This document shows, one piece after another, positions 44,630-60,312 of a stretch of DNA of 64,000 nucleotides (position 1 is the stretch's first letter; each line of letters opens with the position of its first letter). The translations under genes and the position numbers were made by a program. Origin of the DNA: an uncultured virus (IMG/VR IMGVR_UViG_3300042569_001792). Lineage: Duplodnaviria; Heunggongvirae; Uroviricota; Caudoviricetes. Location of the stretch: the IMG/VR virus record IMGVR_UViG_3300042569_001792, one strand, 5' to 3'. The notes beneath the pieces are model-generated. The model had not been told where the DNA came from. It saw only the letters and a list, made by a program, of their open reading frames with translations, and ran no database searches.

Positions 44630-45037
44630 ATGAAAATGCTAAAAGCGAAAGATATAAAACACTTCTCAACAACTGAGTTGTTTTCAGTTTCGGCTCTATT
44701 GATGCAGCCACGGATAGATACAAAAAAGAATTTTCTTGAAACCTTTGATGGTTCCCTAGTTTCTGAGAATCAGTATAAAAAAATAAAAGAAATAAATACA
44801 GGCGATACATTATCTGTAGATGTATTTCAAAAAGGTGGGGCCGTTAGAGTATCTGCTTATCTCGATAAATTTAATAGATTCGTAAATATATCAAGTAATA
44901 ATGTTCGCGGAAGGGTTCTTGATTTTGTAAATGGAAAGGTCATAGTTCAGATAAGCTCAATTGGTCAAGCGGGCCTTCATGTACCCGCGATATTTGAAAG
45001 AATCTATTGTCCCATAAACTCAATAACTAAAATTTAA
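44630..45037 (+). CDS. Hypothetical protein
   Basis: ORF in array. Confidence 0.55.
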   Translation: MKMLKAKDIKHFSTTELFSVSALLMQPRIDTKKNFLETFDGSLVSENQYKKIKEINTGDTLSVDVFQKGGAVRVSAYLDKFNRFVNISSNNVRGRVLDFVNGKVIVQISSIGQAGLHVPAIFERIYCPINSITKI

Positions 45038-45038
45038 T

Positions 45039-45476
45039 ATGTTAAAATCATTAACAGATTCTTTAGAATTAAAAAAAGAAATAGAATCTTTAGATTCAGT
45101 TTCGTTATTGAAGTTAAATAAAGAATTGGGAATTCCTAACAGATTGCGAACTAAATATAACTCACAAACTTTAACAAAAGCATGTACGCATCTTGAAGAA
45201 GATAGAAAAGTAATAAAAGACTTTTTAGATAAAAAAAAATCCGACAGTGTTATCACAAAAGAGGTTCTTTTAAACAGCTTTTTTCAAACATTCTTAACAC
45301 CTATAACAAATGTTCCAAAACATATCTCCGTTTATGGGAAAGTAATGTATAAGCAAAATATTAAGTATGAAAAAAATGTATTTTACAATATAAAGATTAC
45401 TAGAGTTGAAGGAGATTATACGGTAGTTAAGCCGGGAGAAAGAGTTTTCGCAGGACCAAAGCACATAACATTATGA
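45039..45476 (+). CDS. Hypothetical protein
   Basis: ORF in array. Confidence 0.55.
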   Translation: MLKSLTDSLELKKEIESLDSVSLLKLNKELGIPNRLRTKYNSQTLTKACTHLEEDRKVIKDFLDKKKSDSVITKEVLLNSFFQTFLTPITNVPKHISVYGKVMYKQNIKYEKNVFYNIKITRVEGDYTVVKPGERVFAGPKHITL

Positions 45477-46051
45477 CAGTTGATAAAACAGTAAATTATT
45501 TTGTAGAACAGAAAAAAGAACTTTTTACCGAGTTGAAGAAATTATCAACAGTAGATTTATCTAAATTATGGTTTAAAATACATAAAGAAAAATTATTGGA
45601 AAAGAGACAGTATCTATTAAATTATTTAATTGAATCTCCAAGGATAAGTAAGGGTTGTTTAAAGGAGTTTCAACCAAAGATAGATCCAGATACTAAAAGT
45701 CTCAAAGTTGGTAATATTTATTTTATAAAAATGACCACTAACGAAGGTTTTGCTAAGATTAGGAAGATTGATGGGAATTATTCAGAGGTTGAATGGCTTA
45801 CAGAATTCATAGCTGAGAAAAAGATGATAGAATATGCCGTTCCGAATGGATGTATTTATGATTTAAACAGCACGCTTTTAAATAAAGTTATTAGCTTCAG
45901 AACTAGCTATGCTCCATTTGAAATAAAGAATCAAATAGTAGTCGGCATTAGAGATAAAACACTTGTAGTAGTAAGGGATGGTGATTTAGGTATGATAAGA
46001 GATGTGAATATAAGTAAAGTATTAACAATTTCAAAAAATAATGCTACATAA
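45473..46051 (+). CDS. Hypothetical protein
   Basis: ORF in array. Confidence 0.55.
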   Translation: MTVDKTVNYFVEQKKELFTELKKLSTVDLSKLWFKIHKEKLLEKRQYLLNYLIESPRISKGCLKEFQPKIDPDTKSLKVGNIYFIKMTTNEGFAKIRKIDGNYSEVEWLTEFIAEKKMIEYAVPNGCIYDLNSTLLNKVISFRTSYAPFEIKNQIVVGIRDKTLVVVRDGDLGMIRDVNISKVLTISKNNAT

Positions 46052-46138
46052 AATGGTAAAATTATTCAAAACATTGTTAGGTAAATTGTATAAAAAACAA
46101 ACAATAAACAGTTCTGATTACAAAGAGGAGGATGACAC

Positions 46139-46423
46139 ATGGAGACAATAGAATCGTTAAGGAAAAAAGGGGTAAAAGTAAGGGTATCTCATTATAGGAG
46201 GCCAGTTCTAACAATTGGATCAGCAACCGTAAAACCAGATATCTTTTTGTTAGAGTCTGAAATAAGACGATTAGGATTAAATTTCAATCCATCTGGAGGG
46301 TACACGGAACTCTTAATAACAGAAGATGGCATAGATTATACTCTTAGATCGAGATGTAAAAATACCGATTCTTATAATAAAAAAATTGGAGTTCAATTAG
46401 CATTGGATAAAATAAATCTTTAA
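46139..46423 (+). CDS. Hypothetical phage protein
   Basis: GG.T and C...DSYNKKIG..LA motif, similar to ORF 57287. Confidence 0.6.
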   Translation: METIESLRKKGVKVRVSHYRRPVLTIGSATVKPDIFLLESEIRRLGLNFNPSGGYTELLITEDGIDYTLRSRCKNTDSYNKKIGVQLALDKINL

Positions 46424-46503
46424 AAATACATAGTGGGTTGATGAGGGAGGGGAATGATAATACTATTAATTGTATTAGGCTTTTTATTTGGTTGGAGGAG
46501 TGA

Positions 46504-46704
46504 ATGAATAAAATAAAAGTATCAAGTAAGAAAGTATTGATAAAAATACTTATAGAAAATGGTTACGAGCATGTTGGAGGAACTAAACATGAAAAGTGGA
46601 CAAATGGAGTTATTTCAGTTTATGTCCCTAGACATGAAAAGAATTTCTCAAGAATGTGCGCGGAAAGAATATTGAAAACAGCAAAAATTGACTTGCAGGA
46701 TTAG
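46504..46704 (+). CDS. HicA-family toxin-like protein
   Basis: 66 aa; L.ENGY, GGTKH, VPRH, ILK.A pattern. Confidence 0.75.
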   Translation: MNKIKVSSKKVLIKILIENGYEHVGGTKHEKWTNGVISVYVPRHEKNFSRMCAERILKTAKIDLQD

Positions 46705-46720
46705 AAATCCATGCTATATT
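46693..46720 (+). promoter_or_regulatory. Sigma70-type promoter
   Basis: TTGCAG-16-TATATT with extended TG. Confidence 0.5.
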
Positions 46721-46746
46721 GAAACATAAACCTACAATAAAATGAC

Positions 46747-47985
46747 ATGACAATTTGGATTGAAAAATATAATAGAGAATTGGAGAATCATATCAACGAT
46801 ATAATTGAAGATTTGTCAGAAGATTCTGAGTTCAATAAACAGACTAGACTCGTCAGATATTATAGTGGTGTATATCCAGAATTCTTTAAAGACTATAAGG
46901 TGTGCAGTTACTTTAACTGTCTAATGCCAAAGGAAAAACTACAGGCATATTTCTCTGATTGGGGTTCATTTCAACTCAATCAACCTACATACGTTTGTAA
47001 AAAAATAGCTCACAGAGTTATATTTTTTGACGATATAAATAAACAGTATTTTCATAACAACAATTCAGTTGTTCTTGAATTAGAAGAGAACGGAAAAAGG
47101 ACTAAATATTTAACCCATTATAACTATGCTAAAGATTTAAAGGATAAGCAAGAATTATTTTATGATAAAATGAAGAGTAAATACACAAACTATGAATTTG
47201 ATTACCCCGCATTCTCTAACACTTACAAAGGTTCTCCTCGGTTCTGGAAACTTCCAGAAAAACAAGAGGTTTACGGAATCGAACTTGAACTAAGATTTAA
47301 GAGTTATCCGCACAAACTTGATTTCGCGCAATCTATCAAAAATAGTATGCGCCCATGGATATGTGAAAAAGACGGATCATTAGACGACGGTAGCCCAGAA
47401 GGGCCTAGCTTAGAATTAATTGGCCCCCCTTTATCGTTAGATGAATTAAAAGAGTCTGTAGATAATATAGGGGAACTTTTAACAGAGCATAAAGCGTCGA
47501 AACCGAACAATACATACGCGCTCCATATTACAACAAATATTAACAATGCCAAGAATCCTATTTTAGCCGGAGCAAGATTTATGGCAATAATAAATGATGA
47601 AAAGTATAGGGATTTCTGGACTAAAGCCGCCGGAAGGCCAGACTCTTATAATCCAAATACAGGTAAGAGTTACGCACAATGGCTAAAGGTTGGTAAAAAC
47701 ATTCAGGATTTAATGAGTCCTTCCTTTTGGAACCCAAGATGGGCGCAAAAGCCTATAGATCATTATTACGCCACATTCCTTCGTAAAGGCGGGACAAGTA
47801 TTGAGACTCGTATATTTAAATCTTCAATAACTCCGTCTTTAATCAAGAATAGAATTTCCCTTATAGCTTACTTATGGAGATTTGCAAAATCAAATGAAAG
47901 TATGGACAACTGGATAGACTATATATCTTGTCAGAATAAGTTTCTAACCTCTTATTTGAAAAAAAATCAAATGATTCCTGCTTGA
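46747..47985 (+). CDS. Putative amidoligase (COOH-NH2 ligase, GS/GCS-like fold), copy 1
   Basis: YGIELEL, EKDGSL, LELIGPP, LHIT, IETRIF motifs. Confidence 0.82.
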   Translation: MTIWIEKYNRELENHINDIIEDLSEDSEFNKQTRLVRYYSGVYPEFFKDYKVCSYFNCLMPKEKLQAYFSDWGSFQLNQPTYVCKKIAHRVIFFDDINKQYFHNNNSVVLELEENGKRTKYLTHYNYAKDLKDKQELFYDKMKSKYTNYEFDYPAFSNTYKGSPRFWKLPEKQEVYGIELELRFKSYPHKLDFAQSIKNSMRPWICEKDGSLDDGSPEGPSLELIGPPLSLDELKESVDNIGELLTEHKASKPNNTYALHITTNINNAKNPILAGARFMAIINDEKYRDFWTKAAGRPDSYNPNTGKSYAQWLKVGKNIQDLMSPSFWNPRWAQKPIDHYYATFLRKGGTSIETRIFKSSITPSLIKNRISLIAYLWRFAKSNESMDNWIDYISCQNKFLTSYLKKNQMIPA

Positions 47986-48009
47986 CTTTCTGAGAATCCA
48001 TGGTAGAGT
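47982..48009 (+). promoter_or_regulatory. Sigma70-type promoter
   Basis: TTGACT-16-TAGAGT with extended TG. Confidence 0.55.
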
Positions 48010-48040
48010 AACATTAACAACAACAAGACTTCAAAATAAA

Positions 48041-48928
48041 ATGTGTGTAATCGTACTTAAAGAAGAAAACGGTAAATTAAATTCCTCTATTTTTGACCAA
48101 TGCTGGGCAAGAAATGGAGACGGTGGTGGATATGTAGCTATCCATAACGGCAAGGTTATAATGGAGAAGGGTATTATGAATAAGGACGAGTTCCTTAAAA
48201 AAGTAAAACCATTCTTCAACAAAGGCTCTCAACTTATTCTACATTTTAGAATCCAGAGTCGAGGCGGAGTTTCAGTTAATTTAACTCACCCATTTGACTG
48301 CTCTCAGGAAGGTTCTAAAACTAAACGGTATCTATTCCATAACGGAACGGTTAAAGCTATATCTGCACTAAGCGTAGGTGAATCAGATACATCTACCTTA
48401 GCTAATTGGTTAAAAGTTTTAAGCGACGAAGATTGTAAAAAAATGCTTGAAAACTTAGTGAGTAAGGGGCATGGTAGATTCGTGTTTGTTGTGGGAACAA
48501 AGATATATCATTGGGGCGACGAAGAGAGTGTGGAGAAAAAGAAAGTTTGGTATTCAAATACTAGACATGAATTGTTTAATCCAGCGAAAGATAAGCGACC
48601 CACAATGGGAGATGGGTGTGAAGGGGATTTCTTTGGATTAGGTGGATTTCGTGGTGGTCATCATAACGATTATGATGATATGTATCATCGTCACACTCAA
48701 CAATATTCTAGTTTAACTGAATTAGAAGAAGCTAAGAAAATTATCATAAACGATATTCTAAAAATAGAGAGCATCAATACTGGTATTATTCCATCTGAAT
48801 ACGATGAATGGAAAGAAGAGATAATTAAAGATTACGAACTATTAAAACTCACAACAGAAACACTAAAATCAATTAAAAATTCCACTTCAAAAACCCCATT
48901 GATAGATTACTTCCTAGCCACACCTTAA
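48041..48928 (+). CDS. Class II (Ntn) glutamine amidotransferase
   Basis: Cys2 nucleophile, NGDGGG, HFR..SRG, HPF, HNGT, SDT motifs. Confidence 0.9.
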   Translation: MCVIVLKEENGKLNSSIFDQCWARNGDGGGYVAIHNGKVIMEKGIMNKDEFLKKVKPFFNKGSQLILHFRIQSRGGVSVNLTHPFDCSQEGSKTKRYLFHNGTVKAISALSVGESDTSTLANWLKVLSDEDCKKMLENLVSKGHGRFVFVVGTKIYHWGDEESVEKKKVWYSNTRHELFNPAKDKRPTMGDGCEGDFFGLGGFRGGHHNDYDDMYHRHTQQYSSLTELEEAKKIIINDILKIESINTGIIPSEYDEWKEEIIKDYELLKLTTETLKSIKNSTSKTPLIDYFLATP

Positions 48929-48949
48929 TACTAACAAATAAAAAACAAA

Positions 48950-50332
48950 ATGAATACAAGTACAATGCTATCCGACGATCCAATCTTCTCCATTCTTGGA
49001 CAAAAGAAACCTGTAAAGGTAATTGATCCTTCGATTTATACAGAATCATTTATTAAAGCTGTCGCCACAAAGGTAGTTAAAGGCAAGCCGCTAAATGAAG
49101 ATGAATTGACATATTTGTCAATAGACCCATCTAAATGCAAAAATGAATGGGTAGAATTTGTCCGAGATAGATTCCAAGGACATAATATTCCTAAAAATGC
49201 AGCACAGGAAATTTATTCTACTGGCATTGATAATGGTAATGGTAGAAACGGATTGGCTTATACATTAAAATCCAAGATAAATGACCATATTAAAAATAGT
49301 TCGGTATTTTTCGACGAACTAGTTGGAAAGTACCTATACGATTTCTCTGTAGTTCCTTATATTGACAAGAATTGGAATCTTAAACACACAAGTTCCAATA
49401 CAGCCAATCATTATCATAATAATGGGAAACTCCACAATTCCTTAATTGCACGGAATCAAAGTGTTTTCACAGAAAATCCATCTCATTTTAAGGAGCATAG
49501 CCCTGGAAATAATAAAAGTTTTGTCAAACCCACTGGAGAGGCATTTGGCATTGAGATTGAAATGAGCTTCAAACCCAATACTGGCGACCAATATATAGGC
49601 GCGGCAAATAAACTTAACTTCGCTAATTGGGTTCATGACAATTATCCTAATTGGATTTGTGAAAGAGACGGTTCACTTGAAGAAGGTAATAAAGGTAATG
49701 CTGGTTTATGTGGACTAGAATTAGTTTCACCACCACTAACTTTTGACGAAGCTATTACTAACCTACCTATTATCTTGGATAAGGCTCGTTCTCTTGGAGC
49801 TAAGGCATTTATTCCCAATAATGAATTCTTTGGAATTCACGTCACCACAAATCTATACGGGAAGACTGCGACAAAAACGGGCGATAAGATTGTTTACCTT
49901 GTTAATAACAAGATATTTAGGGAGTTTTGGTACGCTTGCGCTAAACGTAACGGACTCGCGATCAATAAATTTGCTCCATTTATGAATGATCTAAGTCTTG
50001 GATCTGCCTTAAAGTCTCAATCAGGCGGTGAGCATTATCGCTCAGTTAATCCAAGGGGTTCTGGCGCTTTAGAGATAAGAATTTTTAGATCAACAGTTGC
50101 ATTCCCAGGAATCCATGCTATACTAGAGTTAGTTAAGATTACGCAAGATTATTGTATGAACGTAACTAATAATTCTAGCCTAGACTCTCCAAGGGAGTTT
50201 ATGGATTATATTAAAGGTAATATGTCTAAGAATCTTGAATCTTGGCTTACTGGTAACGGTGCATTACAAATCCTAGAGATTCTATCTAATCTAAACGTAA
50301 GTAATATCAATAACTCAACATTTGAAGCCTAA
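48950..50332 (+). CDS. Putative amidoligase, copy 2
   Basis: FGIEIEM, ERDGSL, LELVSPP, GIHVT, LEIRIFRS motifs. Confidence 0.85.
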   Translation: MNTSTMLSDDPIFSILGQKKPVKVIDPSIYTESFIKAVATKVVKGKPLNEDELTYLSIDPSKCKNEWVEFVRDRFQGHNIPKNAAQEIYSTGIDNGNGRNGLAYTLKSKINDHIKNSSVFFDELVGKYLYDFSVVPYIDKNWNLKHTSSNTANHYHNNGKLHNSLIARNQSVFTENPSHFKEHSPGNNKSFVKPTGEAFGIEIEMSFKPNTGDQYIGAANKLNFANWVHDNYPNWICERDGSLEEGNKGNAGLCGLELVSPPLTFDEAITNLPIILDKARSLGAKAFIPNNEFFGIHVTTNLYGKTATKTGDKIVYLVNNKIFREFWYACAKRNGLAINKFAPFMNDLSLGSALKSQSGGEHYRSVNPRGSGALEIRIFRSTVAFPGIHAILELVKITQDYCMNVTNNSSLDSPREFMDYIKGNMSKNLESWLTGNGALQILEILSNLNVSNINNSTFEA

Positions 50333-50335
50333 TCT

Positions 50336-51520
50336 ATGACTGGACAATTAATTCATAAACCTATAGGGGTAGAACTGACAAAAGAAAAGTTACAGAAATG
50401 TTTCAAAAACAATGAGCGTTATATATCCGTAGCGTTTTCATTTGAAAAGAACGGTACTAAATACTGGAATAAGTATCAATTTGAAAAACTATCTCTTCTT
50501 GAAGCTGATGATTGTTTTGACAATTTAATTAGTAAAGATAGTGATTGTATTATCTTCTTTAATGGTGCTTACAATATGAAACCAGCGGAGTTACCATTCT
50601 ATGCTATAGAAGCGAGGAAAGATTGGTTTTGGTATGCCTTAGAGGGTATATGCAGTACGTTTCCAACAAGTAGTGAGGGGGATTGTTTTTATAATAATTT
50701 CCTTAAAACTATAAGCCCCGAAGGTGCTTATTCATTATGGAAGAAATTAGGTGAATCAAATAAGATTGGTCGGACTATTGGTATTAAACAAGGTATTGTA
50801 TCAAGATTCGGTACTTGGATAGAAGAGGATGGTATATTCTATTCCAATACAGATCATAACAAAAAACCGTTTGAATATGGTTATCAAGGTACTTCTCATC
50901 GTGGTTATACTACTCCTACAACAACAGCAAAGGTAGACAATATATCTTCATTAAATTATCCAGAAGTTCATACTATTGGCGAGGGGCTTTTAGCAGCAAA
51001 AGCTGGAGAAGGATTGCTAAAATACTATACATTGTTTCATACTTATCCAAACTTGGTTTATATAGACGACGTAACATCTGAAAAGTATAAAAAAGCTGGA
51101 TTAATGCCTATGGATTTTGTAAAGTTGGTTCAAACAGAAGATTCGACAATACACGCTCCAGGTTTAGATTATCTAAAGTCCTGTCTATCTACATATAAGA
51201 AAGTAATCATTACAGTTGTAAGATTTATAAATTGTGAAAAGACCAATAGGACCGAGGCAATTATTGAAATATCTAACGAGCCTAAGATAGAAAAAAATGA
51301 AGAAGTGGTAACTCTTAAACCAGGTCAGAAAAAATATATATTAACAAAGTTAAATGTAGCATTAGTGATGGCGGAAAATGACTGTGATGAAGCCGTCGCA
51401 ATGGAACTAATTAGAGAGGGTCATAGCTTCGCAGACGAATTATCCGCTCGGGAAGACTGTTTTCTTATAGAAAGAGCAAAAGAACATAAAATCACAGGAT
51501 GGATTTCAATCCACTCATAA
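50336..51520 (+). CDS. Degenerate class II GATase-like multidomain protein
   Basis: N-terminus .IHKP.G and GTWIEEDGIFYSNT echo ORF 48041; catalytic Cys2 absent. Confidence 0.45.
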   Translation: MTGQLIHKPIGVELTKEKLQKCFKNNERYISVAFSFEKNGTKYWNKYQFEKLSLLEADDCFDNLISKDSDCIIFFNGAYNMKPAELPFYAIEARKDWFWYALEGICSTFPTSSEGDCFYNNFLKTISPEGAYSLWKKLGESNKIGRTIGIKQGIVSRFGTWIEEDGIFYSNTDHNKKPFEYGYQGTSHRGYTTPTTTAKVDNISSLNYPEVHTIGEGLLAAKAGEGLLKYYTLFHTYPNLVYIDDVTSEKYKKAGLMPMDFVKLVQTEDSTIHAPGLDYLKSCLSTYKKVIITVVRFINCEKTNRTEAIIEISNEPKIEKNEEVVTLKPGQKKYILTKLNVALVMAENDCDEAVAMELIREGHSFADELSAREDCFLIERAKEHKITGWISIHS

Positions 51521-51537
51521 ACTAAACAAAAAAAACT

Positions 51538-52281
51538 ATGAAAATAAAACTAAGAACCCCTCATATCACACCAAGATCAATAAAAGATATCTTCCCTAAG
51601 GTCAAAGGAAAAGGTTCTGTATTGATTCGCTTCGGAGCGTCTAAAAAATCCAAGCAAGAACCCGCTGATATTACTATCAATACACTCGAAGCTATTAAGA
51701 CTAATGCGGATAAAATCCGAATGAAGGAAATTTTTAAGGAAAATGATATTCCTTCTCCAGATTTTGCCCCAAATACAAACGAAGGTCGTCAATACTTTAA
51801 GGACAACAAATACAATGTTGTTTACAAAAAGAGATATCATCATGGTGGGATTGGAATGGAATTGGTCCCACTAGACCAAATTGATAAGTTTGGAGACGGT
51901 CAATATAATGGTGGTATTTTGGAGCGTAGGTTAAATGTAAAGAGGGAGTGGAGAATCCACGCTTGTCCTGCATTAAATTTAACTTTTTCTGTTGAAAAAC
52001 GCAAAAGGTATGATAAGCTACATGAAGTTGTGCGAAACAATGACAACTGCGTATTCAAGGTAAATTTTGAAATCCCTGAAAATTGGAATACTGCTTTAGA
52101 AATGGCTCTAAAAGCTGTTTCAGTAATGAAGCTTGACGTTGGTGCTGTCGATTTAGTATGGACAGGTAAAAACTATTATGTCATAGAAACTAATTCCGGT
52201 CCCGGTATGGGAGATCAAACTTCTCAATGGTATGCAGATACTCTAGCTCAACTAATCGAACATAAGAAAAACAATCAGTAA
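51538..52281 (+). CDS. ATP-grasp ligase
   Basis: DK, K..HHGGIG, EWRIH, GAVD, ETNSGPG motifs. Confidence 0.88.
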   Translation: MKIKLRTPHITPRSIKDIFPKVKGKGSVLIRFGASKKSKQEPADITINTLEAIKTNADKIRMKEIFKENDIPSPDFAPNTNEGRQYFKDNKYNVVYKKRYHHGGIGMELVPLDQIDKFGDGQYNGGILERRLNVKREWRIHACPALNLTFSVEKRKRYDKLHEVVRNNDNCVFKVNFEIPENWNTALEMALKAVSVMKLDVGAVDLVWTGKNYYVIETNSGPGMGDQTSQWYADTLAQLIEHKKNNQ

Positions 52282-52312
52282 ACAAAAAAAACAATAAACA
52301 ACAAATAAAAAA

Positions 52313-53224
52313 ATGAAGAACTTAATTACAATTGGCTCTGATCCTGAAATGGTAGTATTTAAAGAAGATCGGCCTGTGTGCGCTATCCCTGTTGTTGATT
52401 TTCACGGCAAGGAAGATAAGTTGGTTTTCAATGAACATGACACTCTTTACTATGATAATGCTCTAGTTGAGGGTACTATTAAACCAGCGGAGGATGGAGA
52501 AGAACTTGTTCATAGCTTCCGTTCCCTTTATGGTCATAGTTCTGGCTATCTAGCTGAAAAGGGAGCGCAATTAATGGCTTTTGCTTCCGTTAATTTCGAT
52601 GCAAATGAATTACTCCAATTCCCTAAGGCTCTGGAATTTGGCTGCGATCCAGAAGTAGATATGTGGGAAAATGTATTATGCCCCCCTCCATTTTGTGATC
52701 CTATGTCCGGTTTTCGTTCTGCCGGTGGTCATATTCACATTGGTCGTAAAGATTATAAAACCGCTGATGAAAATAGCTTTCTTATGAATTATGAGAGTAA
52801 ATCTCATTTCACAAGGGCGATGGATCTAATTGTCGGAACCGCCCTTACTGCTATTGAAAATGATCCATCTGCTCCCAAGCGTAAAGAACTATACGGTAAA
52901 GCAGGTCGCGCTCGTTTTGAACTCCCTTATGGAGTTGAATATAGAACTCCTTCTAATGGATGGACTGCTATGCCAGAAAAAGTAAGATTAGTCCATGATC
53001 TTACAATGTTTGCTGTTGACTTCTTCGGAAACAATGCTACAGTATTTGATGGAGGAAAGGAGTATCCATTTAATACAGTTATTGATATTATCAATAGTGG
53101 GGACCAAAAGGCGGCTATGGAAATTATTCCATCACTTCCACATAAGGAATTTATTCCTAGACTAATGGAACTAGCTAATCTAAAACATGAGCCGCGAGTA
53201 GCCGTAAATTACGGAGGATTCTAA
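52313..53224 (+). CDS. phiEco32-like COOH-NH2 ligase type 2
   Basis: IGSDPE, DN..VE, FGCDP, RSAGGHIHIG, LYGKAG, YGVEYRTPSN motifs. Confidence 0.92.
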   Translation: MKNLITIGSDPEMVVFKEDRPVCAIPVVDFHGKEDKLVFNEHDTLYYDNALVEGTIKPAEDGEELVHSFRSLYGHSSGYLAEKGAQLMAFASVNFDANELLQFPKALEFGCDPEVDMWENVLCPPPFCDPMSGFRSAGGHIHIGRKDYKTADENSFLMNYESKSHFTRAMDLIVGTALTAIENDPSAPKRKELYGKAGRARFELPYGVEYRTPSNGWTAMPEKVRLVHDLTMFAVDFFGNNATVFDGGKEYPFNTVIDIINSGDQKAAMEIIPSLPHKEFIPRLMELANLKHEPRVAVNYGGF

Positions 53225-53252
53225 TAATTAAACAACATAACTGAAATATAAA

Positions 53253-54008
53253 ATGAAAATCTCAATTAATCTAAATAACGGTGGTTTTGCCCAGATTTAT
53301 AGTTCGGGGCCAGTATTCGGCTTTGTATCAGAAAAGGGGGAGCATTGCCACCCTTTTTATTTCTGCAAAGATTTTATGAATGATGCTATTGCAGCACAGG
53401 TCAACGGTAAGAATATGGGTATCTATGGATTTAATCATGATCCAAAAAAGCATCCTAATCTTGACCTATCAAAAACACGGATTGTCTTTTCAAATAAAAA
53501 TGATAAACAAATGGCGGATAGAATTCCAGCGATTCAGGATATCTTGAATCAAGCCTGTAAACTACTAAAACTTACAAAATGTAAAGTTGAAAATGTAGGT
53601 ACTCATGGAGATTATAAAGATGTATTATATATAACAGGTTCTAAAGATTGGATGGTTGGCGGACCAGCAATGTCCCTTTTAACTCTATTAGTTAGGGTCG
53701 GGGCAGTACACACACCTGGAAACAACATTATGAATACACTAGAGTCTGTAATGAAGGGTGAAATTAAGCCTTATGGTAGTAATGATGCGAGTTATATCAA
53801 ATCATCTATCGACGGAATTAAGTTCTTGTTTGAAAATGGATTTTCCGCCTTAGGTGATATGTCTAAGAATTACGATCCAAATATCTCAATTGGAACTATT
53901 CATAATACTGGTATTGTTGGATATTCAAATACCCTACGCAATCCAAAGTCAACTAGCAATTTCCCACATTGGGCAGAATATATTGAAAGTAAAAAAGTAA
54001 CAGTTTAA
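53253..54008 (+). CDS. Conserved hypothetical protein, paralog of 58020 and 58777
   Basis: CKDF, TGSKDW...P..SL.TLL.R, IHN.GI motifs. Confidence 0.65.
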   Translation: MKISINLNNGGFAQIYSSGPVFGFVSEKGEHCHPFYFCKDFMNDAIAAQVNGKNMGIYGFNHDPKKHPNLDLSKTRIVFSNKNDKQMADRIPAIQDILNQACKLLKLTKCKVENVGTHGDYKDVLYITGSKDWMVGGPAMSLLTLLVRVGAVHTPGNNIMNTLESVMKGEIKPYGSNDASYIKSSIDGIKFLFENGFSALGDMSKNYDPNISIGTIHNTGIVGYSNTLRNPKSTSNFPHWAEYIESKKVTV

Positions 54009-54031
54009 TCGAATCTAAAATAAAATAAAAT

Positions 54032-54691
54032 ATGAAAAATCTATTTGTAGTTGGTGGTAGTAATGGGTACGCTAATTGGGTGCTTCCTCTTGGATTCCAG
54101 ATAACCCAAAATGCAGATGAAGCTGACCTATTTCTTTTTACTGGTGGGGAAGATGTAAATCCTGCTTTGTATAATCAACCAGTCGGAAGACATACTTATT
54201 TCACAAATAGGGATGTTCTTGAAAAGAAGTATTTTGAATATGCTCTAAATGCCAATAAGCCAATGATGGGTGTTTGTCGTGGGTTGCAATTTCTAACCGT
54301 AATGGCCGGGGGTAAATTAATTCAAGATATGAATCACCCAGGATATCATGAGTTTGTAGCTAATACAGGTGAACGTATGTATATTAATTCGCTCCATCAC
54401 CAAATGGCTTTAGTCGATCCGAGTGTTACTAAATTAGTTGATGGCGAGGATTATGAATTAATCGCCTGGACTGAACGACTATCTAAATATCATCTTGACG
54501 GACATGATTTGAATTATGGCTTCCCGGGTAATTTTAAAGAGCCGGAGGTTCTATTTTTCCCTAAGATTAAAGCCTGGGGAGTGCAAGGCCATCCAGAAAT
54601 GTTATTTAGTGGGAATAGAGGTGGGATGGAATTTAAGGATACAATTTCATTTCTGCAAAATTCACTAACTAACTGTTTAAATCTAAAGTAA
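54032..54691 (+). CDS. Class I glutamine amidotransferase / peptidase C26, copy 1
   Basis: GGEDV, GVCRGLQ, NSLHHQ, QGHPE motifs. Confidence 0.92.
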   Translation: MKNLFVVGGSNGYANWVLPLGFQITQNADEADLFLFTGGEDVNPALYNQPVGRHTYFTNRDVLEKKYFEYALNANKPMMGVCRGLQFLTVMAGGKLIQDMNHPGYHEFVANTGERMYINSLHHQMALVDPSVTKLVDGEDYELIAWTERLSKYHLDGHDLNYGFPGNFKEPEVLFFPKIKAWGVQGHPEMLFSGNRGGMEFKDTISFLQNSLTNCLNLK

Positions 54692-54695
54692 AGCT

Positions 54696-55154
54696 ATGCC
54701 GCTTGATATAGATAAATTGTATAAAGATTATTTAGAAAAACCTTTCTTTGCACAGGATATTCGAGGCAGTATCTACTTTTGTGATTTTATGAAAAGAAAT
54801 ATTAACGCAAAAGGAGATTATTGGCTAGTAGATAGTTATGATGTTTATGGTAGATGTGCAAAGTTTACTATGAATTCGGATTATTTAGATCTTTATACAA
54901 AGCCATTAATTATCTCGAATAATAAACATAATAATATGCTTTTACTTGCGGATAAATGTGGTAATATCTTATTAACAACAAAAGAGGATTTTAAAGATGG
55001 TGCTTATACTGCTTTATATTATGTAGATATAGTTGATAGTAAAGAATATAAAGTTGGTGATACTGATTATTATACATTTTGTCCAAATGGGGAATCAGGA
55101 TTTGAAATATTGCCACCGGCATTTAAGATAAGGGTAGATTTTAACCATAAGTAA
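54696..55154 (+). CDS. Hypothetical protein
   Basis: ORF; C-terminal ILPPAFKIRV motif shared with four other ORFs. Confidence 0.55.
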   Translation: MPLDIDKLYKDYLEKPFFAQDIRGSIYFCDFMKRNINAKGDYWLVDSYDVYGRCAKFTMNSDYLDLYTKPLIISNNKHNNMLLLADKCGNILLTTKEDFKDGAYTALYYVDIVDSKEYKVGDTDYYTFCPNGESGFEILPPAFKIRVDFNHK

Positions 55155-55159
55155 ATCAA

Positions 55160-55510
55160 ATGTCAGAAACAAAAAGAATAGCAGTTTACGGAACCTTAAA
55201 AAGAGGTTTTTATAATTACGATAGATTTAATCATTTTTACGAATTTAAGTTTGTAGGATCAGAACGGATCAAAGGATTTTCTCTTTATGATTTGGGTCAT
55301 TATCCAGCGGCAGTTGAATCAGATCCAGAAAACGAAATTACAATAGAAATCTTTGATGTTTCGCCCGCATGTTATAAATCGTTGCATGAAATGGAAATTT
55401 CAGCAGGATATGTAAAAAAAGAAGTTGCAACATCTCATGGCTGTGCTATACTATGGGCATACGAAAATGAACCAAGATACAGCAAGCTAATAGAATCAGG
55501 AATATACTAA
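55160..55510 (+). CDS. Gamma-glutamylcyclotransferase (AIG2-like)
   Basis: VYGTLKRG, YP, L..ME...Y motifs. Confidence 0.9.
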   Translation: MSETKRIAVYGTLKRGFYNYDRFNHFYEFKFVGSERIKGFSLYDLGHYPAAVESDPENEITIEIFDVSPACYKSLHEMEISAGYVKKEVATSHGCAILWAYENEPRYSKLIESGIY

Positions 55511-55511
55511 G

Positions 55512-55919
55512 ATGTTTTTTGAATATCATCAGAATTTATATGTTGTATGCTCTTATATTGATTATAGAGATAAAACTATTAAGTCTGCTTTAGATGGTCA
55601 GTCTATGTCAATAGAGTGCTACATGATTTCGAGAATGACAGTCTCGCCGACTTATGTATCAAGACATGATGTAGAAAGACATATAGAAAAATTCAATAGC
55701 TATGTAATTCCAGATATCGAAAAGCCTAATTTAGTCTTAAATAAAGATGGACTTTTAGCCTTTATGATTAGATGCTTCACAACAAATCCAAGTCAAAAAA
55801 CTTTAATAGTTTTAGATCCGAATATTAATTCTAATCTACGGGTAGGTCAAAGAATAACACTAGATACATCATCGTTACAAAGAGTCCCCAATAAACTAAA
55901 AATTGAAATAAAAAAATAG
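55512..55919 (+). CDS. Hypothetical protein
   Basis: ORF; C-terminal RVPNKLKIEI. Confidence 0.55.
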   Translation: MFFEYHQNLYVVCSYIDYRDKTIKSALDGQSMSIECYMISRMTVSPTYVSRHDVERHIEKFNSYVIPDIEKPNLVLNKDGLLAFMIRCFTTNPSQKTLIVLDPNINSNLRVGQRITLDTSSLQRVPNKLKIEIKK

Positions 55920-55920
55920 T

Positions 55921-56622
55921 ATGAAACAAATCTCAATCGTAGGAAATGTAAATGGAGAAGATCAACTATGGCTCAACCGGGCTTATGTTAATTACTTTTC
56001 CCAATATGGAAATGTATCTATTGTCGATCCATTCTCTAATGAAGTAAAAGAAACCGATCTATTAGTTCTACCAGGTGGTAGTGACGTTAATCCAGCAAGA
56101 TACAACACTCCATGGCTGCCGATTATCAGTCTTCCAAATCGGGCTTACGAGTATTTTGATGAAGTAATACTTCCTCATTATGTCAAGTCAAATACTCCTA
56201 TTTTTGGAATTTGTCGCGGTCTTCAAACACTTAATGTATTGTTTGGCGGTACGTTAAAGCCACATTGTAATGAACCAACATCACATTCAGATGGAAGTAT
56301 AGCGCATTGGGTAAAAGACGTTGAAACAGAGGAGCTATTTAAATGCTCGTCGAACCATCACCAAGCAATTGACCAATTAGCTGATGGATTCTTAATCACT
56401 GCGGTTGGATACCCTATTACTAATGACAATAAAAAGGGAGCTATACTTGATCCAAAGTCTAAGCAGCTAGAAATTGAAGGGATTCGCCACGCAAATCTAC
56501 CTATTAGAGCAGTTCAATTTCATCCAGAGAAGAATTTTAATGGAAAGTCTTGTATCAAGATTAATGACAAGTTTGTTGAGCCGCAAATACTAGAACTTCT
56601 TAACTATCAAAAACCACAATGA
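55921..56622 (+). CDS. Class I glutamine amidotransferase / peptidase C26, copy 2
   Basis: PGGSDV, GICRGLQ, NHHQ, QFHPE motifs. Confidence 0.92.
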   Translation: MKQISIVGNVNGEDQLWLNRAYVNYFSQYGNVSIVDPFSNEVKETDLLVLPGGSDVNPARYNTPWLPIISLPNRAYEYFDEVILPHYVKSNTPIFGICRGLQTLNVLFGGTLKPHCNEPTSHSDGSIAHWVKDVETEELFKCSSNHHQAIDQLADGFLITAVGYPITNDNKKGAILDPKSKQLEIEGIRHANLPIRAVQFHPEKNFNGKSCIKINDKFVEPQILELLNYQKPQ

Positions 56623-57203
56623 GACCACCTTATTTAACATTTATTCATTATAAATATGATGACAACGAAGACTTTAAAAGAGTAACTTGTTTTGCTGGCA
56701 TGGATCTATCCTCACTAAAATCTGTTAGATTTTATATAGATGATTGTTTAGGTCGATCAGATGTAGATAAATATTTTGATTTTCTAAAATCCGTATTTGA
56801 TATTGAATTTGGATTTGTATTTAATACAGCCCCAAAAATCGTTAAGAACGGGAATATGGAAAATGTAGTAGATGTTTCTTTGGACTTATCTTCATATAGT
56901 CGAGTACAGTGTCTAACTATACTAACATTACTAAGATATGTTCAGGAATTTCCCGAGATAGTGGAAAAAACAACAGAAAATGAGGCGAATTGGGAATCTT
57001 TTAAAGATGGCCATAAACACTGGAATGAAATTAGAAAGGGTACGGAAACAAAAGTTAAGTACGATAATGCTTATGGACATGGAATAGCTTGTACTGACTA
57101 TACCAAAGGTCATTTCATGCAAGATAATTTCTGTTCATTAGAAAAGTTTAAATTAAACTTTAGTAAAGCTCTAACAGGGTATGTTAAAAACCTTTTCCAA
57201 TAA
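56619..57203 (+). CDS. Hypothetical protein
   Basis: CFA, LTLLRY..E.P, GHG motifs. Confidence 0.55.
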   Translation: MRPPYLTFIHYKYDDNEDFKRVTCFAGMDLSSLKSVRFYIDDCLGRSDVDKYFDFLKSVFDIEFGFVFNTAPKIVKNGNMENVVDVSLDLSSYSRVQCLTILTLLRYVQEFPEIVEKTTENEANWESFKDGHKHWNEIRKGTETKVKYDNAYGHGIACTDYTKGHFMQDNFCSLEKFKLNFSKALTGYVKNLFQ

Positions 57204-57210
57204 AAAACTC

Positions 57211-57238
57211 TTGACTTCTTTAAAAACTGTGCTATAAT
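57211..57238 (+). promoter_or_regulatory. Sigma70-type promoter
   Basis: TTGACT-16-TATAAT with extended TG. Confidence 0.75.
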
Positions 57239-57286
57239 TACAAATCGAAACAATCCACAACAAACCAACAATAGAAAAACAAAAAT

Positions 57287-57616
57287 ATGAATAAGACACT
57301 AACTACAAAAATCATCAATAAAAACGGTAAGCGGCTTGGATTTATGGTCGCTACAAAAAACGAGAATAATGAAGTCCTGCTTGGATTTTCGCTATGCTGC
57401 AAGAAAGATAAGTTTAATTATGATCGCGGTCTTCATATCGCTACAAACCGCTCTTTCAAGGGAGTAACAAAATTCCCTCATAGTCTAAAGAGTAAGGTGG
57501 CTAATTTCCATGGTCGTTGTGTTAAGTATTTTAAGGATGCTGCGGTGCCATCTATGGAAATGTTTACATTTGTAAATACGAAGGAAGAAAACGAAGAAGA
57601 AAAACAAGGCGAATGA
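57287..57616 (+). CDS. Hypothetical phage protein
   Basis: GFSLC...DKFN...G..IA..R motif. Confidence 0.6.
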   Translation: MNKTLTTKIINKNGKRLGFMVATKNENNEVLLGFSLCCKKDKFNYDRGLHIATNRSFKGVTKFPHSLKSKVANFHGRCVKYFKDAAVPSMEMFTFVNTKEENEEEKQGE

Positions 57617-58017
57617 AATTAAATATCTCTGTCGAGGATCGACTTACTGCGGGCATAATCCTATTCGGCCCGGAAGTTAAGCCTATAATGGATAACGAAT
57701 TTGATATTAAAGGCTCCTACGCTTTTATTAGAAATAACCAGTTATTTATCATTGGTATGCACGTTCGTCCGTATAAAATGACGGATGGATTCAGTAAAGT
57801 CGATCCTCGCAGGGATCGTAACTTAAAAGTTACAAAATCCGAACTAAGATTCTTAAAAGAGAAACATAAGAAAGGTTTCTCGATTATTCCAGAATCTGTG
57901 GAATATATTAAAGGCAAGTTTAGAGTGATTCTAGCTATTGGCAAACCATTGAAAAAATGGGATAAAAGATCAAAGGAAAAGGAAAGAGAATCCGAAAAAG
58001 AAATGAAGGAGTATTAA
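57613..58017 (+). CDS. smpB: SsrA-binding protein SmpB
   Basis: AGIIL.G.EVK, SYA.I, HVRPY, DPRRDR.L, GFSIIP, K.WDKR..K.RE motifs. Confidence 0.88.
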   Translation: MKLNISVEDRLTAGIILFGPEVKPIMDNEFDIKGSYAFIRNNQLFIIGMHVRPYKMTDGFSKVDPRRDRNLKVTKSELRFLKEKHKKGFSIIPESVEYIKGKFRVILAIGKPLKKWDKRSKEKERESEKEMKEY

Positions 58018-58019
58018 TT

Positions 58020-58775
58020 ATGGTATATTTTTTTCAAGTTGATAAGGACGGTGATGTTTTAAATTGGGATGATGTTGAATGGGATGATTGTGATGATTCA
58101 GATCATCTAAAAGAAGATAGTTGTAGAGCTAGAAGGCACCAACTTATCTTTAGATATATGAATTCTAATAGTAAGAAACTTATAAAGACCAAAACAGTCT
58201 TGGGTATAACAACTAATAGCTCAGAAGCGGATATTAAAAGATGTGTCAAAATTCTTAATGAGTTAGAGGAGAAAGTTGGTTTAAGTAAAACAACTTATAA
58301 AAAGTCTGCAATAAGCAATAAACAGTTTGTAGTTAAAGGCGAGGTCTGGAAAAGATATATCTTTACTGGAAGTAAATTATGGAGTATTGCGCCGCCAACT
58401 CATAGCCTTTATACGTTACTAATTAGATTGTTGGTCGATGGTGGTGAAAAAATGCCAGCTAATTTTAAGATAGGGGTATCAGAATTACTATATGATTTTC
58501 GTTTTTTGACTGACCACTGTGAATATAACAAGATCTATAATGAAATTATCCCCTTCACCTCTAGTATTGGAGAAATATTCGGGTCTAGTATAACTAGAAA
58601 TTACAAGATAAATATTAATAATTTGAATGATGAGGATATCTATAATTTTGAATGGGATATTCATAATTTTGGAATTCAATCATTTTTGTATGAGTATTAC
58701 CCAGACGACAATGAGAAATTCACAAAAAAAGCAAAAAAATGGTTCTCTAAATATAAACAAATAATAAAACAATAA
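58020..58775 (+). CDS. Hypothetical protein, paralog of 58777 and 53253
   Basis: CRARRH, GSKLWSIAPP.HSLYTLLIR, IHNFGI motifs. Confidence 0.7.
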   Translation: MVYFFQVDKDGDVLNWDDVEWDDCDDSDHLKEDSCRARRHQLIFRYMNSNSKKLIKTKTVLGITTNSSEADIKRCVKILNELEEKVGLSKTTYKKSAISNKQFVVKGEVWKRYIFTGSKLWSIAPPTHSLYTLLIRLLVDGGEKMPANFKIGVSELLYDFRFLTDHCEYNKIYNEIIPFTSSIGEIFGSSITRNYKININNLNDEDIYNFEWDIHNFGIQSFLYEYYPDDNEKFTKKAKKWFSKYKQIIKQ

Positions 58776-58776
58776 C

Positions 58777-59502: not shown

Positions 59503-59510
59503 TGTATAGT
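59483..59510 (+). promoter_or_regulatory. Sigma70-type promoter, probably leaderless transcript
   Basis: TTGACT-16-TATAGT; ATG 5 nt downstream. Confidence 0.65.
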
Positions 59511-59515
59511 ACAAC

Positions 59516-59878: not shown

Positions 59879-59887
59879 ATTTAACAC

Positions 59888-60264: not shown

Positions 60265-60278
60265 ATTTCAAAAACAGC

Positions 60279-60306: not shown

Positions 60307-60312
60307 ACAAAC

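Follow-up and report, generated by a model that had tools for sequence, protein, structure and literature searches.

A lake-water phage carries an enlarged amidoligase cassette that may write and erase glutamyl (iso)peptide tags in the cytoplasm

Positions 46747–57203 of the window (the whole 64,000-nucleotide stretch of IMG/VR record IMGVR_UViG_3300042569_001792, from an uncultured member of the Caudoviricetes) hold a cluster of 13 tightly packed plus-strand open reading frames (ORFs) that form a lineage-specific enlargement of the phiEco32/PaP3/LUZ24-type amidoligase cassette and that we tentatively, with a little under even confidence, take to encode a cytoplasmic glutamyl (iso)peptide writer/eraser set, for which a C-terminus would be the likeliest substrate. 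The genes are separated by no more than 55 nt, one pair overlaps by 4 nt, and the products are two Amidoligase_2 ligases, a RimK-like ATP-grasp ligase, a COOH-NH2 ligase type 2, a class II (Ntn) hydrolase and its degenerate paralogue, two peptidase C26 enzymes, one GGACT cyclotransferase and four proteins without an assigned family (Table 1). A preliminary description of this DNA had counted four ligases, the same number of amide-cleaving enzymes, one degenerate copy and some unknown ORFs; the family, profile and PDB matches show this inventory to be correct, and the extent it gave coincides exactly with the 13 ORFs called. The catalytic motifs, whose possible loss that description had raised, are intact in all eight enzymes by alignment and profile.

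Table 1. Features of the cluster and of its downstream flank (L003 is a distant metagenomic relative)
Feature	Position	Strand	Basis	Identity to L003 counterpart
Amidoligase_2 paralogue 1 (glutamine-synthetase-fold carboxylate-amine ligase)	46747..47985	+	Pfam PF12224 E 1.6e-4	45%
Class II (Ntn) glutamine amidotransferase-type hydrolase, stand-alone, N-terminal Cys	48041..48928	+	family profile	56%
Amidoligase_2 paralogue 2	48950..50332	+	Pfam PF12224 E 7.6e-7	48%
Degenerate Ntn paralogue (394 aa)	50336..51520	+	hhalign vs Ntn family 97.6%, E 2.9e-12	
RimK-like ATP-grasp ligase	51538..52281	+	Pfam RimK 8.3e-6; phrog_2599 4.4e-24	71%
COOH-NH2 ligase type 2 (phiEco32-like, GCS2-related)	52313..53224	+	PF14395 9.7e-9; phrog_3815 7.7e-40	
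251-aa protein	53253..54008	+	weak structural hint: glutamine-synthetase/PafA-type ligase fold	
Peptidase C26/class I GATase-type gamma-glutamyl hydrolase, copy 1	54032..54691	+	PF07722 6.2e-21; phrog_7218 3.5e-32	
152-aa protein	54696..55154	+	no family match	28–30% (positional counterpart)
GGACT/AIG2-type gamma-glutamyl(amine) cyclotransferase	55160..55510	+	PF06094 2.1e-14; PDB 1v30 1.8e-13	50%
135-aa protein, fast-evolving	55512..55919	+	no family match	19% (positional counterpart)
Peptidase C26/class I GATase-type gamma-glutamyl hydrolase, copy 2	55921..56622	+	PF07722 1.2e-23	56%
194-aa protein	56619..57203	+	no family match; start overlaps C26 copy 2 stop by 4 nt	42% (C-terminal half)
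Near-consensus sigma70-type promoter-like site	57211-57238	+	TTGACT, 16 nt, TG-TATAAT; within the spacer (83 nt) downstream of the cluster	

The two Amidoligase_2 paralogues are 28% identical (E 7e-22), and the motifs GIExE, CExDGSL, LELxxPP, HxTxN and ExRIFxS are invariant in all four sequences aligned, both paralogues included; the PF12224 match of paralogue 1 scores 22.1 bits against a cut-off of 22. This paralogue also has an N-terminal extension of ~170 aa to which no function is assigned. The C-terminal half of the ATP-grasp protein matches the RimK models of Pfam and NCBIfam; the protein has all ATP/Mg motifs (K59, GxG 104–106, ExR 137–139, D205 and ExN 217–219 are invariant in five of five sequences), its top partial NCBIfam matches are CofF, RimK and MptN, and it is predicted to add L-glutamate to a carboxylate. 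All its scores fall well short of the equivalog cut-offs; against the family model of rimK, whose product poly-alpha-glutamylates the C-terminus of ribosomal protein S6, it reaches 28.8 bits where the cut-off is 143.4, as befits a relative and not an orthologue. The GxDPE, HxH and EYR motifs of the COOH-NH2 ligase are invariant across PaP3, ECBP2, cr108_1 and L003, and tblastn matched this enzyme to 302 phage records, every one at less than 60% identity.

Pfam alone gives the stand-alone Ntn protein only E 0.015, whereas the profile of its family (28 sequences) matches the PurF glutaminase domain 1ao0 at E 3.4e-6. Residues C2, H68, R70, H100-N101, T103 and S115-D116 are invariant in that profile and G102 is present in at least 90% of it; the family retains the full PurF-type glutamine-binding set, and the protein is predicted to be active. 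The Ntn gene is immediately preceded by an Amidoligase_2 gene in five of eight IMG/VR loci with Ntn homologues (a sixth has one within 1.3 kb), in PaP3, in ECBP2, and twice in the present cluster. This arrangement and the residue set speak for a proposal that concerns the role of the Ntn genes and not the whole cluster, namely that Ntn serves the amidoligase encoded upstream as its glutaminase subunit, passing ammonia through a channel to an acyl-phosphate, so that the core reaction would turn a carboxylate into a carboxamide and would not be a peptide ligation. We nonetheless find it very unlikely, for two reasons. Across the loci and proteins examined, Ntn occurs fused to GGACT (in two of the eight IMG/VR loci and in P0078), which supports a hydrolase role, but in no case to an amidoligase. 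And the Ntn copy of the second pair has neither the nucleophile nor the glutamine-binding residues, so that the paralogue 2 amidoligase, for one, cannot rely on ammonia channelled to it.

That second copy reads Thr for Cys2, F/N for H68/R70 and LEG for HNG, and judged by these substitutions it has lost the nucleophile and the glutamine-binding residues; its Thr2 is absent from more distant full-length relatives. The protein is probably a non-catalytic binding or adaptor protein, with an Ntn-like part (~5–176), a predicted PDZ-like domain (~212–318) and then a helical tail. The PDZ-like domain was seen by none of the sequence methods applied; it comes from one AF2 model built from five sequences, in which pLDDT is 47–87 across the domain and the N-terminal half failed. 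In that model the best VIA-align match is 4yo1 (Z 10.5, rmsd 2.7, 93 aligned), all 50 of the 50 matches listed are PDZ domains or PDZ-bearing proteases, and the top Foldseek matches are likewise all PDZ (probability up to 1.00, best E 0.019). PDZ domains bind the free C-termini of peptides, and ligases of the RimK-like family, one of which is encoded next door, add glutamate to C-terminal carboxylates; on these grounds the likeliest substrate would be the C-terminus of a peptide or protein, whether of host or phage. The PDZ-bearing protein was not found in PaP3, ECBP2, cr108_1 or the eight IMG/VR loci, so this lineage-confined protein may say little about the cassette in general.

Both C26 copies, which are 31% identical to each other, have the CRGLQ, HHQ and HPE motifs and match PDB 3fij (6.9e-12 for copy 1 and 1.3e-7 for copy 2), and in the GGACT protein YGTL and the Glu within EIxxGY align with 1v30. 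The solved proteins matched by the C26 copies (3fij and 7d4r) are PuuD-like, and their best NCBIfam match, a partial one, is gamma-glutamyl-CDP-amidate hydrolase. Pathways in which glutamate is attached and then removed are familiar from PuuA/PuuD, EgtA/EgtC and BtrJ/BtrG. These matches favour a small-molecule pathway, in which the product would be a free gamma-glutamyl compound (a glutathione-like peptide, a gamma-glutamyl amine or a polyamine conjugate), or glutamate would serve as a transient carrier or protecting group later removed by C26, Ntn and GGACT, and the host metabolite pool would be reshaped. The predicted cytoplasmic location of all the proteins (below) agrees with such a pathway, as does the failure to find a conserved Pup-like ORF in the cluster. 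Iyer, Burroughs and Aravind (2008, Biol Direct 3:45), who described the Amidoligase_2-type family, note bacterial neighbourhoods in which the GS-fold ligase is accompanied by either a GATase-like thiol peptidase or a gamma-glutamyl cyclotransferase of the Aig2 type. Seeing no small Pup-like ORF beside the ligase, they prefer glutathione-like peptide metabolites to conjugation of proteins. Those are two-gene cellular neighbourhoods, whereas the phage cluster has both partners together plus three further ligases. We regard the small-molecule pathway as rather unlikely here: the cluster consists of ligases and amidohydrolases only, family searches of it found no oxidoreductase, transferase or transporter for processing or exporting a metabolite, four ligases are many for a simple conjugate, and the modelled PDZ-like domain and the RimK-like ligase point more to peptide ends.

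In the writer/eraser set that we favour, the ligases would act in succession to join glutamate, or a glutamate-linked unit, to an amine or carboxyl end by amide bonds of the alpha- and gamma-carboxyls, and the hydrolases would prepare, trim or reverse such bonds by deamidation of Gln to Glu, removal of gamma-glutamyl groups and release of 5-oxoproline. The amidoligase and Ntn pair would be the functional core, duplicated here, and the second Ntn copy would have turned into a non-catalytic binding module joined to the PDZ-like domain. Since all 13 proteins lack signal peptides and membrane helices, they are inferred to be cytoplasmic, and direct action on the mature cell wall is weakened; the preliminary description had named the cell wall among the possible targets. 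Peptidoglycan precursors in the cytoplasm are another matter: their peptide stem might be amidated or extended, so that the wall is changed and superinfection blocked, a prediction stated for phiEco32 by later papers, which attribute it to Iyer et al. 2009. The stem peptide has a gamma-D-glutamyl bond and free carboxylates, and an Ntn glutaminase beside an ATP-dependent ligase could amidate a carboxylate. However, the 13 proteins lack any Mur-ligase domain, just as they lack signal peptides and membrane segments, and the Ntn-GGACT fusions suit bond cutting better than ammonia supply; we consider this quite unlikely.

Among the proteins without a family, the 251-aa protein has homologues only in three other sequences and L003, and hhalign gave no match between it and the cluster's own ligases. 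A wide VIA-align search with its AF2 model (pLDDT 69.8, pTM 0.78) placed PafA, Dop, GCS or GS in 10 of the 11 top matches, at Z values of just 4.0–5.8; PafA (5.8) and Dop (5.6) rank first, values below the aligner's usual noise level. The fold so suggested lacks the metal-binding ExE strand. The Pup-PafA/Dop system resembles the cluster in its workings only, in that a GS-fold ligase bonds an amine to the gamma-carboxylate of glutamate and has a deamidase/eraser partner; unlike that system, the cluster has no Pup-like small ORF with a conserved C-terminal Gln/Glu and no proteasome genes. The 194-aa protein ends in Gln, a residue that its L003 counterpart does not retain.

The preliminary description had also seen in the cluster an enlarged relative of the phiEco32-type cassette, and five shared enzyme families support this. 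The cassette was predicted in 2009 (Iyer et al. 2009, as reported by citing papers), and, in line with that description, no experimental product of it was found in the published literature. PaP3 (orf48, 46, 45, 43 and 42) and ECBP2 (0085, 0083, 0082, 0079 and 0075) carry, respectively listed, a COOH-NH2 ligase, an Amidoligase_2, a class II GATase, a RimK-like ATP-grasp and a GGCT/GGACT on one strand beside replication genes, with adjacencies similar to ours (amidoligase beside GATase-II, ATP-grasp with GGCT). Protein identity to this type of cassette (PF14395) is just 25–32% where detectable, gene order differs, and Ntn is a stand-alone 295-aa protein here but 517–667 aa long there. The duplicated amidoligase and Ntn pair, the two C26 genes, the pseudo-Ntn/PDZ-like protein and the four lineage-specific unknowns are additions, to which the partner ORFs of PaP3 and ECBP2 have no detectable relation. 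The crAss-like phage cr108_1, which differs in host lineage and genome type, has in gp028–gp034 an ATP-grasp (26% identical), a C26-type "glutamine amidotransferase" (gp031, 40% identical to C26 copy 1) adjoining a COOH-NH2 ligase, and a larger GATase; a second C26, GGACT and Amidoligase_2 were neither annotated nor detected there.

Co-conservation of the genes, on which the preliminary description had made its proposal depend, is found in L003, where 12 of the 13 have BLASTP counterparts in the same order at 28–71% protein identity. The 13th, encoding the 135-aa protein, has no L003 match at E 1e-3 and only a positional counterpart, with an N-terminal MFF common to both. The carrier, a lake-water phage of low GC content and large size (at least about 120 kb), is real and recurrent: half or more of the sampled words occur in each of 20 lake or freshwater runs, of which 16 carry no flag as a possible source, and contigs from four of these runs cover the cluster almost without differences. 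The cluster sits among replication and nucleotide-metabolism genes (ThyA-like, DHFR, dCMP deaminase and RNR), a setting that would suit the attachment of glutamyl or amino groups to the bases or nucleotides of phage DNA as a way to evade restriction. However, no base-hydroxymethylase/kinase/transferase set adjoins it and, to our knowledge, no enzyme family of the cluster is a DNA-modifying family, which makes this hardly credible. The sigma70-type promoters previously reported upstream do not exceed chance (64 sites in 45000–60500 vs 67.4 ± 7.2 in shuffles), and the scan of that interval found no near-consensus site immediately before 46747. A single consensus-grade intergenic site is present near the cluster; it follows the cluster (11 of 12 consensus matches, extended -10 element) and is one of just three intergenic sites in the whole window with the pattern TTGAC-N16-19-TAnAAT. 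This site is probably the start of the next unit, and would thus mark the downstream boundary of the cluster.

What is new here, besides the 13 proteins that all do without signal peptide or membrane helix and the Ntn-GGACT fusions in relatives, is the tandem duplication of the amidoligase and Ntn pair and a second, nucleophile-less Ntn with a predicted PDZ-like domain. If the substrate is indeed the C-terminus of a peptide or protein, the cluster would be a writer/eraser set for glutamyl (iso)peptide tags.

Thirteen plus-strand ORFs, separated by gaps of at most 55 nt, occupy positions 46747–57203, and the preliminary description was right to count among them four ligases and four amide-cleaving enzymes; all eight are recognisable by Pfam, PHROG, PDB or family-profile comparison and are listed in the table below with other features of the window and their counterparts in L003, a distant metagenomic locus.

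Features of the window, the assignments on which they rest, and their counterparts in locus L003 (percentages are amino acid identity)
Feature	Coordinates	Strand	Assignment	L003 counterpart
Sugar-nucleotide/glycosyltransferase block	2.3–9.2 kb			
GDP-mannose 4,6-dehydratase ORF (661 aa)	7253–9238			
DnaE-type polymerase, two ORFs	26066–29932			
GIY-YIG endonuclease	27834–28733	opposite to DnaE		
TnpB/IS605 OrfB-type gene	40769–41980	-	OrfB_IS605 2e-25; Cas12f1-like TNB 3.2e-20	
94-aa ORF	46139–46423	+		
HicA-like ORF (66 aa)	46504–46704	+	phrog_353 'toxin' 4.2e-9	73%
Amidoligase 1	46747–47985	+	Amidoligase_2, E 1.6e-4	45%
Class II (Ntn) GATase-type enzyme	48041–48928	+	28-member family profile vs PurF glutaminase domain 1ao0, 3.4e-6	56%
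Amidoligase 2	48950–50332	+	Amidoligase_2, E 7.6e-7	48%
394-aa protein	50336–51520	+	degenerate Ntn, predicted PDZ-like domain	33%
RimK-like ATP-grasp	51538–52281	+	phrog_2599 4.4e-24	71%
A-rich spacer	52282–52312			
COOH-NH2 ligase type 2	52313–53224	+	PF14395 9.7e-9, 35.3 bits vs cut-off 25; phrog_3815 7.7e-40	59%
251-aa protein	53253–54008	+		41%
Peptidase C26, copy 1	54032–54691	+	6.2e-21	59%
152-aa protein	54696–55154	+		28%
GGACT	55160–55510	+	2.1e-14; PDB 1v30 1.8e-13	50%
135-aa ORF	55512–55919	+		position only, 19%
Peptidase C26, copy 2	55921–56622	+	1.2e-23	56%
194-aa protein	56619–57203	+		42%, C-terminal 81 residues only
Promoter-like site	57211–57238			
SmpB	57613–58017	+	Pfam 4.8e-28	17049–17453
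tmRNA, full-length	59888–60264	+	Rfam RF00023, 65.6 bits vs gathering score 47	18438–18798

A check of catalytic residues, proposed in the preliminary description, found the sequence motifs intact in all eight enzymes; the motifs are the catalytic ones of their families, and their conservation was computed here. The two amidoligases are paralogues (28% identity, E 7e-22) and share GIExE, CExDGSL, LELxxPP, HxTxN and ExRIFxS with their two L003 orthologues. The COOH-NH2 ligase has GxDPE, HxH and EYR in common with the reference phages PaP3, ECBP2 and crAss-like cr108_1 and with L003, and the ATP-grasp protein, for which phmmer gave no PDB match at E 0.01, belongs to a set of five sequences that all keep Lys59, GxG, ExR, Asp205 and ExN. 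CRGLQ, HHQ and HPE are present in both C26 copies, which thus have the Cys-His-Glu triad in a nucleophile elbow (CRGxQ ... HPE); both match the PuuD-like structure 3fij, in an alignment that spans all three motifs for copy 1 and CRGLQ and HHQ for copy 2. GGACT retains YGTL and the aligned Glu of 1v30. Pfam by itself barely detects the Ntn enzyme (GATase_4, E 0.015). When its family of 28 sequences is aligned to PurF, Cys2, His68, Arg70, His100-Asn101 and Ser115-Asp116 are invariant and Gly102 is found in at least 90%; by residue conservation, the enzyme has the N-terminal Cys nucleophile, the glutamine-binding Arg and Asp, and the Asn-Gly oxyanion hole of class II.

The first four genes run amidoligase, Ntn, amidoligase, Ntn-like, and on sequence grounds the two-gene amidoligase + Ntn unit is tandemly duplicated; the pair behaves as a unit able to duplicate. 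Among eight IMG/VR loci with an Ntn homologue, Amidoligase_2 is directly upstream of the Ntn gene in five (L007, with two copies, L008, L009, L011 and L012) and within 1.3 kb of it in L013; in L006 it is a COOH-NH2 ligase gene that lies two genes 5′ of the Ntn gene, and neither ligase was detected near the Ntn gene of L010. In L010 (10001–11080), L013 (10001–10960) and protein P0078, Ntn and GGACT are domains of one fused polypeptide; one IMG/VR contig with the fusion is 205 kb long, and a GenBank record labels the matching CDS a cyclotransferase. Because its fusion partner is a second gamma-glutamyl-cutting enzyme and not a ligase, the Ntn enzyme probably hydrolyses gamma-glutamyl or glutamine amides. 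The alternative role, as an ammonia-donating amidotransferase subunit serving the amidoligase, is one against which these fusions count, and on that sub-question we hold it to be distinctly improbable. A complex prediction for amidoligase 1 (residues 140–412) and the Ntn domain (residues 1–200) scored 0.00 and gave no call either way.

The second Ntn copy, in the 394-aa protein, has diverged strongly. Only five homologues of this protein were found among 5.8 billion clustered proteins. Its residues 5–176 are homologous to the Ntn family (hhalign 97.6%, E 2.9e-12), yet despite the homologous fold the class II residues are lost, with Thr in place of Cys2, Phe and Asn in place of His68 and Arg70, and Leu-Glu-Gly where the family has His-Asn-Gly. 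When 1.84 billion representatives were searched exhaustively with a profile, 47 proteins came up at E ≤1e-3, 7 of them full-length, and 46 of the 47 could be compared at the start: 22 begin Met-Cys, 3 begin Met-Thr-Gly-Gln, and the remaining 21 carry neither Cys nor Thr as second residue, with Met-Cys occurring ten residues in for one of them. All 6 of the nearest sequences have Thr2, whereas 4 full-length relatives at greater distance have Lys or Gly there. We read the domain as catalytically dead because of these replacements and the absence of Thr2 from the distant relatives, which also makes Thr2 an unlikely Ntn nucleophile, with a small chance that it serves as one in the nearest orthologues.

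In the AlphaFold2 (AF2) model of the 394-aa protein, residues 1–216 have pLDDT <50, so that the Ntn homology comes from hhalign only, and residues about 212–318 have pLDDT 47–87. This second region matched PDZ domains only when compared with 48,161 chains by VIA-align: all 50 rows listed are PDZ domains or PDZ-bearing proteases, six rows have Z ≥8, and the best is DegQ 4yo1 (Z 10.5, rmsd 2.7 Å, 93 residues aligned). Foldseek ranked PDZ domains of HtrA, DegP, Ctp and RseP at the top; its probability reached 1.00, but its best E was only 0.019. Sequence methods detected no PDZ domain in the 394-aa protein: Pfam PDZ matched neither it nor 15 relatives, and a PDB profile search gave, over this region, only a weak DegP-like chain (E 0.83). 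From a model of moderate confidence, then, the protein is predicted to carry a PDZ-like domain.

The phage amidoligase cassette is said to have been described computationally by Iyer et al. in 2009. The kinship with phiEco32-type phages proposed in the preliminary description stands, since five families are shared, and by gene content the cluster is an enlarged form of that cassette. PaP3 has the five families in one block (orf48 COOH-NH2 ligase, orf46 amidoligase, orf45 GATase-II, orf43 ATP-grasp and orf42 GGCT), as does ECBP2 (genes 0085, 0083, 0082, 0079 and 0075), and the Amidoligase_2 + Ntn adjacency that occurs twice here is the arrangement of PaP3 orf46/45 and ECBP2 0083/0082. The RimK-like ATP-grasp and GGACT genes lie in the same same-strand block of a genome whose phage context comes from its RNR, DnaE, DnaB, primase and ThyA genes. 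With tblastn the COOH-NH2 ligase matched 302 GenBank phage records, all at <60% identity (best 32.6%). In cr108_1 a C26-type gene adjoins the COOH-NH2 ligase gene, and its product shares 40% identity with C26 copy 1. HMMs of the lineage-specific proteins found L003 only, with no match in PaP3, ECBP2, cr108_1 or the eight IMG/VR loci. We found no experimental characterisation, product or target of the cassette in the papers retrieved.

L003 was the only metagenomic locus matched by a profile of the 394-aa protein and its homologues, and it is the one relative with sufficient flanking DNA for comparison of gene order. It is collinear with window positions 46.1–58 kb, and the co-conservation that the preliminary description called for was found there: 12 of the 13 ORFs have same-order BLASTP counterparts, the 13th (the 135-aa ORF) has one by position only, and L003 contains one additional 104-aa ORF. 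Directly upstream of the cluster are the 94-aa and HicA-like ORFs, the latter being the best-conserved protein of the region; its Pfam HicA score is under the cut-off. Strong GGAGG ribosome-binding sites precede both ORFs; in front of the cluster genes the leaders are A-rich and lack GGAGG. The sigma70-type promoters placed upstream in the preliminary description were not borne out, as there are 64 promoter-like sites vs 67.4 ± 7.2 in shuffled sequences, and the only consensus-grade intergenic promoter-like site nearby lies just 3′ of the cluster.

The window is low in GC (about 29–37% in 2-kb bins), its genes are nearly all on the plus strand, and its content is that of a large tailed phage, with ribonucleotide reductase, ThyA-like, DHFR, DnaE, DnaB and primase genes together with genes for a sigma-70 region 2 protein, RNA ligase, UvdE, peptide deformylase and a TnpB that lies amid the plus-strand phage arm. 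The DnaE-type polymerase is split into two ORFs, with an intein-splicing segment at the end of the first and the GIY-YIG gene between them. The GDP-mannose 4,6-dehydratase ORF, which has a LAGLIDADG-like insertion that is probably an intein, comes last in a block that also includes GT2, GT11, TylF-type methyltransferase, NodZ-like, hexapeptide transferase and DegT-type aminotransferase genes. Near-identical DNA occurs in 20 metagenome runs from lake or freshwater sites, and 16 of the 20 carry no flag as a possible source; in four of the runs contigs cover the cluster, with 1 difference listed, and the longest record is 121 kb. The A-rich spacer shows a depth spike (31–85 in its bin vs about 2–12 in flanking bins), a low-complexity artefact in which it draws the poly-A loose ends of unrelated contigs. 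By megablast the cluster had no DNA-level match among GenBank phages, tblastn of amidoligase 2 against phages gave none at 1e-3, and IMG/VR scans with single proteins and the A1 profile gave none; the cluster is absent from the nearest virus record (G001), and PADLOC matched no defence family among 16 proteins.

What might these enzymes do together? We infer every chemical step, and the target, from the enzymes, their motifs and linkage, and the fold prediction. Our tentative preference, held at slightly less than an even chance, is that the ligases would attach glutamate-type units by alpha and gamma amide linkages and the hydrolases would deamidate, trim or erase those linkages, and that in this lineage the substrate would probably be a free peptide or protein C-terminus, because it would be presented by the pseudo-Ntn/PDZ-like protein. 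A free gamma-glutamyl metabolite is a rather doubtful alternative product; a 2008 paper (Iyer, Burroughs and Aravind, Biol Direct 3:45) from the group behind the 2009 prediction connects the Amidoligase_2-type family either with a GATase-like thiol peptidase or with an Aig2 cyclotransferase and prefers glutathione-like metabolites for it, and the PDZ-like domain points instead to a C-terminus. Modification of nucleic acid seems to us extremely improbable.

Papers citing the 2009 prediction speak of cell-wall modification that blocks superinfection, and a cell-wall target was also among those in the preliminary description. That part of its interpretation is weakened: none of the 13 cluster proteins has a Mur_ligase Pfam domain or an N-terminal signal-like segment, and no 19-residue Kyte–Doolittle window exceeds 1.6, the sole exception being a borderline helix inside the 251-aa protein, buried in the model. 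The chemistry would be cytoplasmic, since signal segments and membrane helices are lacking, and peptidoglycan modification of the MurT/GatD or Mur-ligase type is disfavoured for want of a Mur ligase domain and of envelope targeting; modification of cytoplasmic peptidoglycan precursors we consider improbable.

The 251-aa protein has 3 homologues besides that in L003, and its AF2 model (pLDDT 69.8, pTM 0.78) gives a hint only of a ligase-like fold. PafA, Dop, gamma-glutamylcysteine ligases and glutamine synthetases make up 10 of the top 11 rows, at Z 4.0–5.8 (PafA 5.8, Dop 5.6), which is under the aligner's stated noise level, and the ExE strand position reads FGFVS. Foldseek gave nothing below E 0.012, hhalign of the family against the cluster's amidoligases and COOH-NH2 ligase and a PDB profile search gave no match, and the ESM Atlas offered no usable match for either the 251-aa or the 194-aa protein. 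A pupylation-like system was rejected, as no conserved small ORF ends in Gln/Glu and the PafA/Dop likeness is weak and without sequence support; the 194-aa protein was rejected as a Pup-like tag because its C-terminal Gln is absent from the L003 counterpart.

Genes for tmRNA (missed by ARAGORN) and SmpB lie 0.4–3 kb downstream of the cluster, and directly after it in L003; both have been reported in huge phages (PMC7162821). A 52-aa "ORF" (59940–60098) was rejected as a protein gene, being the tmRNA tag frame, which is conserved as protein between the window and L003 (NPDAYL core; endings AYALV and ALATA). The tag would be unusually long, about 30–38 residues, if the resume codon sits as in the Rfam alignment. 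The cluster could be imagined as a protein C-terminus editing machine coupled to the phage's own ribosome-rescue module, in which the PDZ-like pseudo-amidase would select free C-terminal tails, perhaps written by tmRNA/SmpB, the ligases would glutamylate or isopeptide-link them and the hydrolases would erase the mark, so that tagged proteins would be kept from host proteases or delivered to them; this is a speculation to which we assign a very small probability.

The amidoligase cassette occurs in hundreds of phages and has been without a known product since its 2009 computational description. On that long-open question the enlarged cluster offers handles in the duplicated core, the Ntn–GGACT fusion and the probably dead Ntn copy with the PDZ-like domain it is predicted to have gained, which is a concrete bait for substrate fishing. 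If the substrate is indeed a protein C-terminus, phages would possess a means of host takeover based on glutamylation-type chemistry and comparable to ADP-ribosylation.
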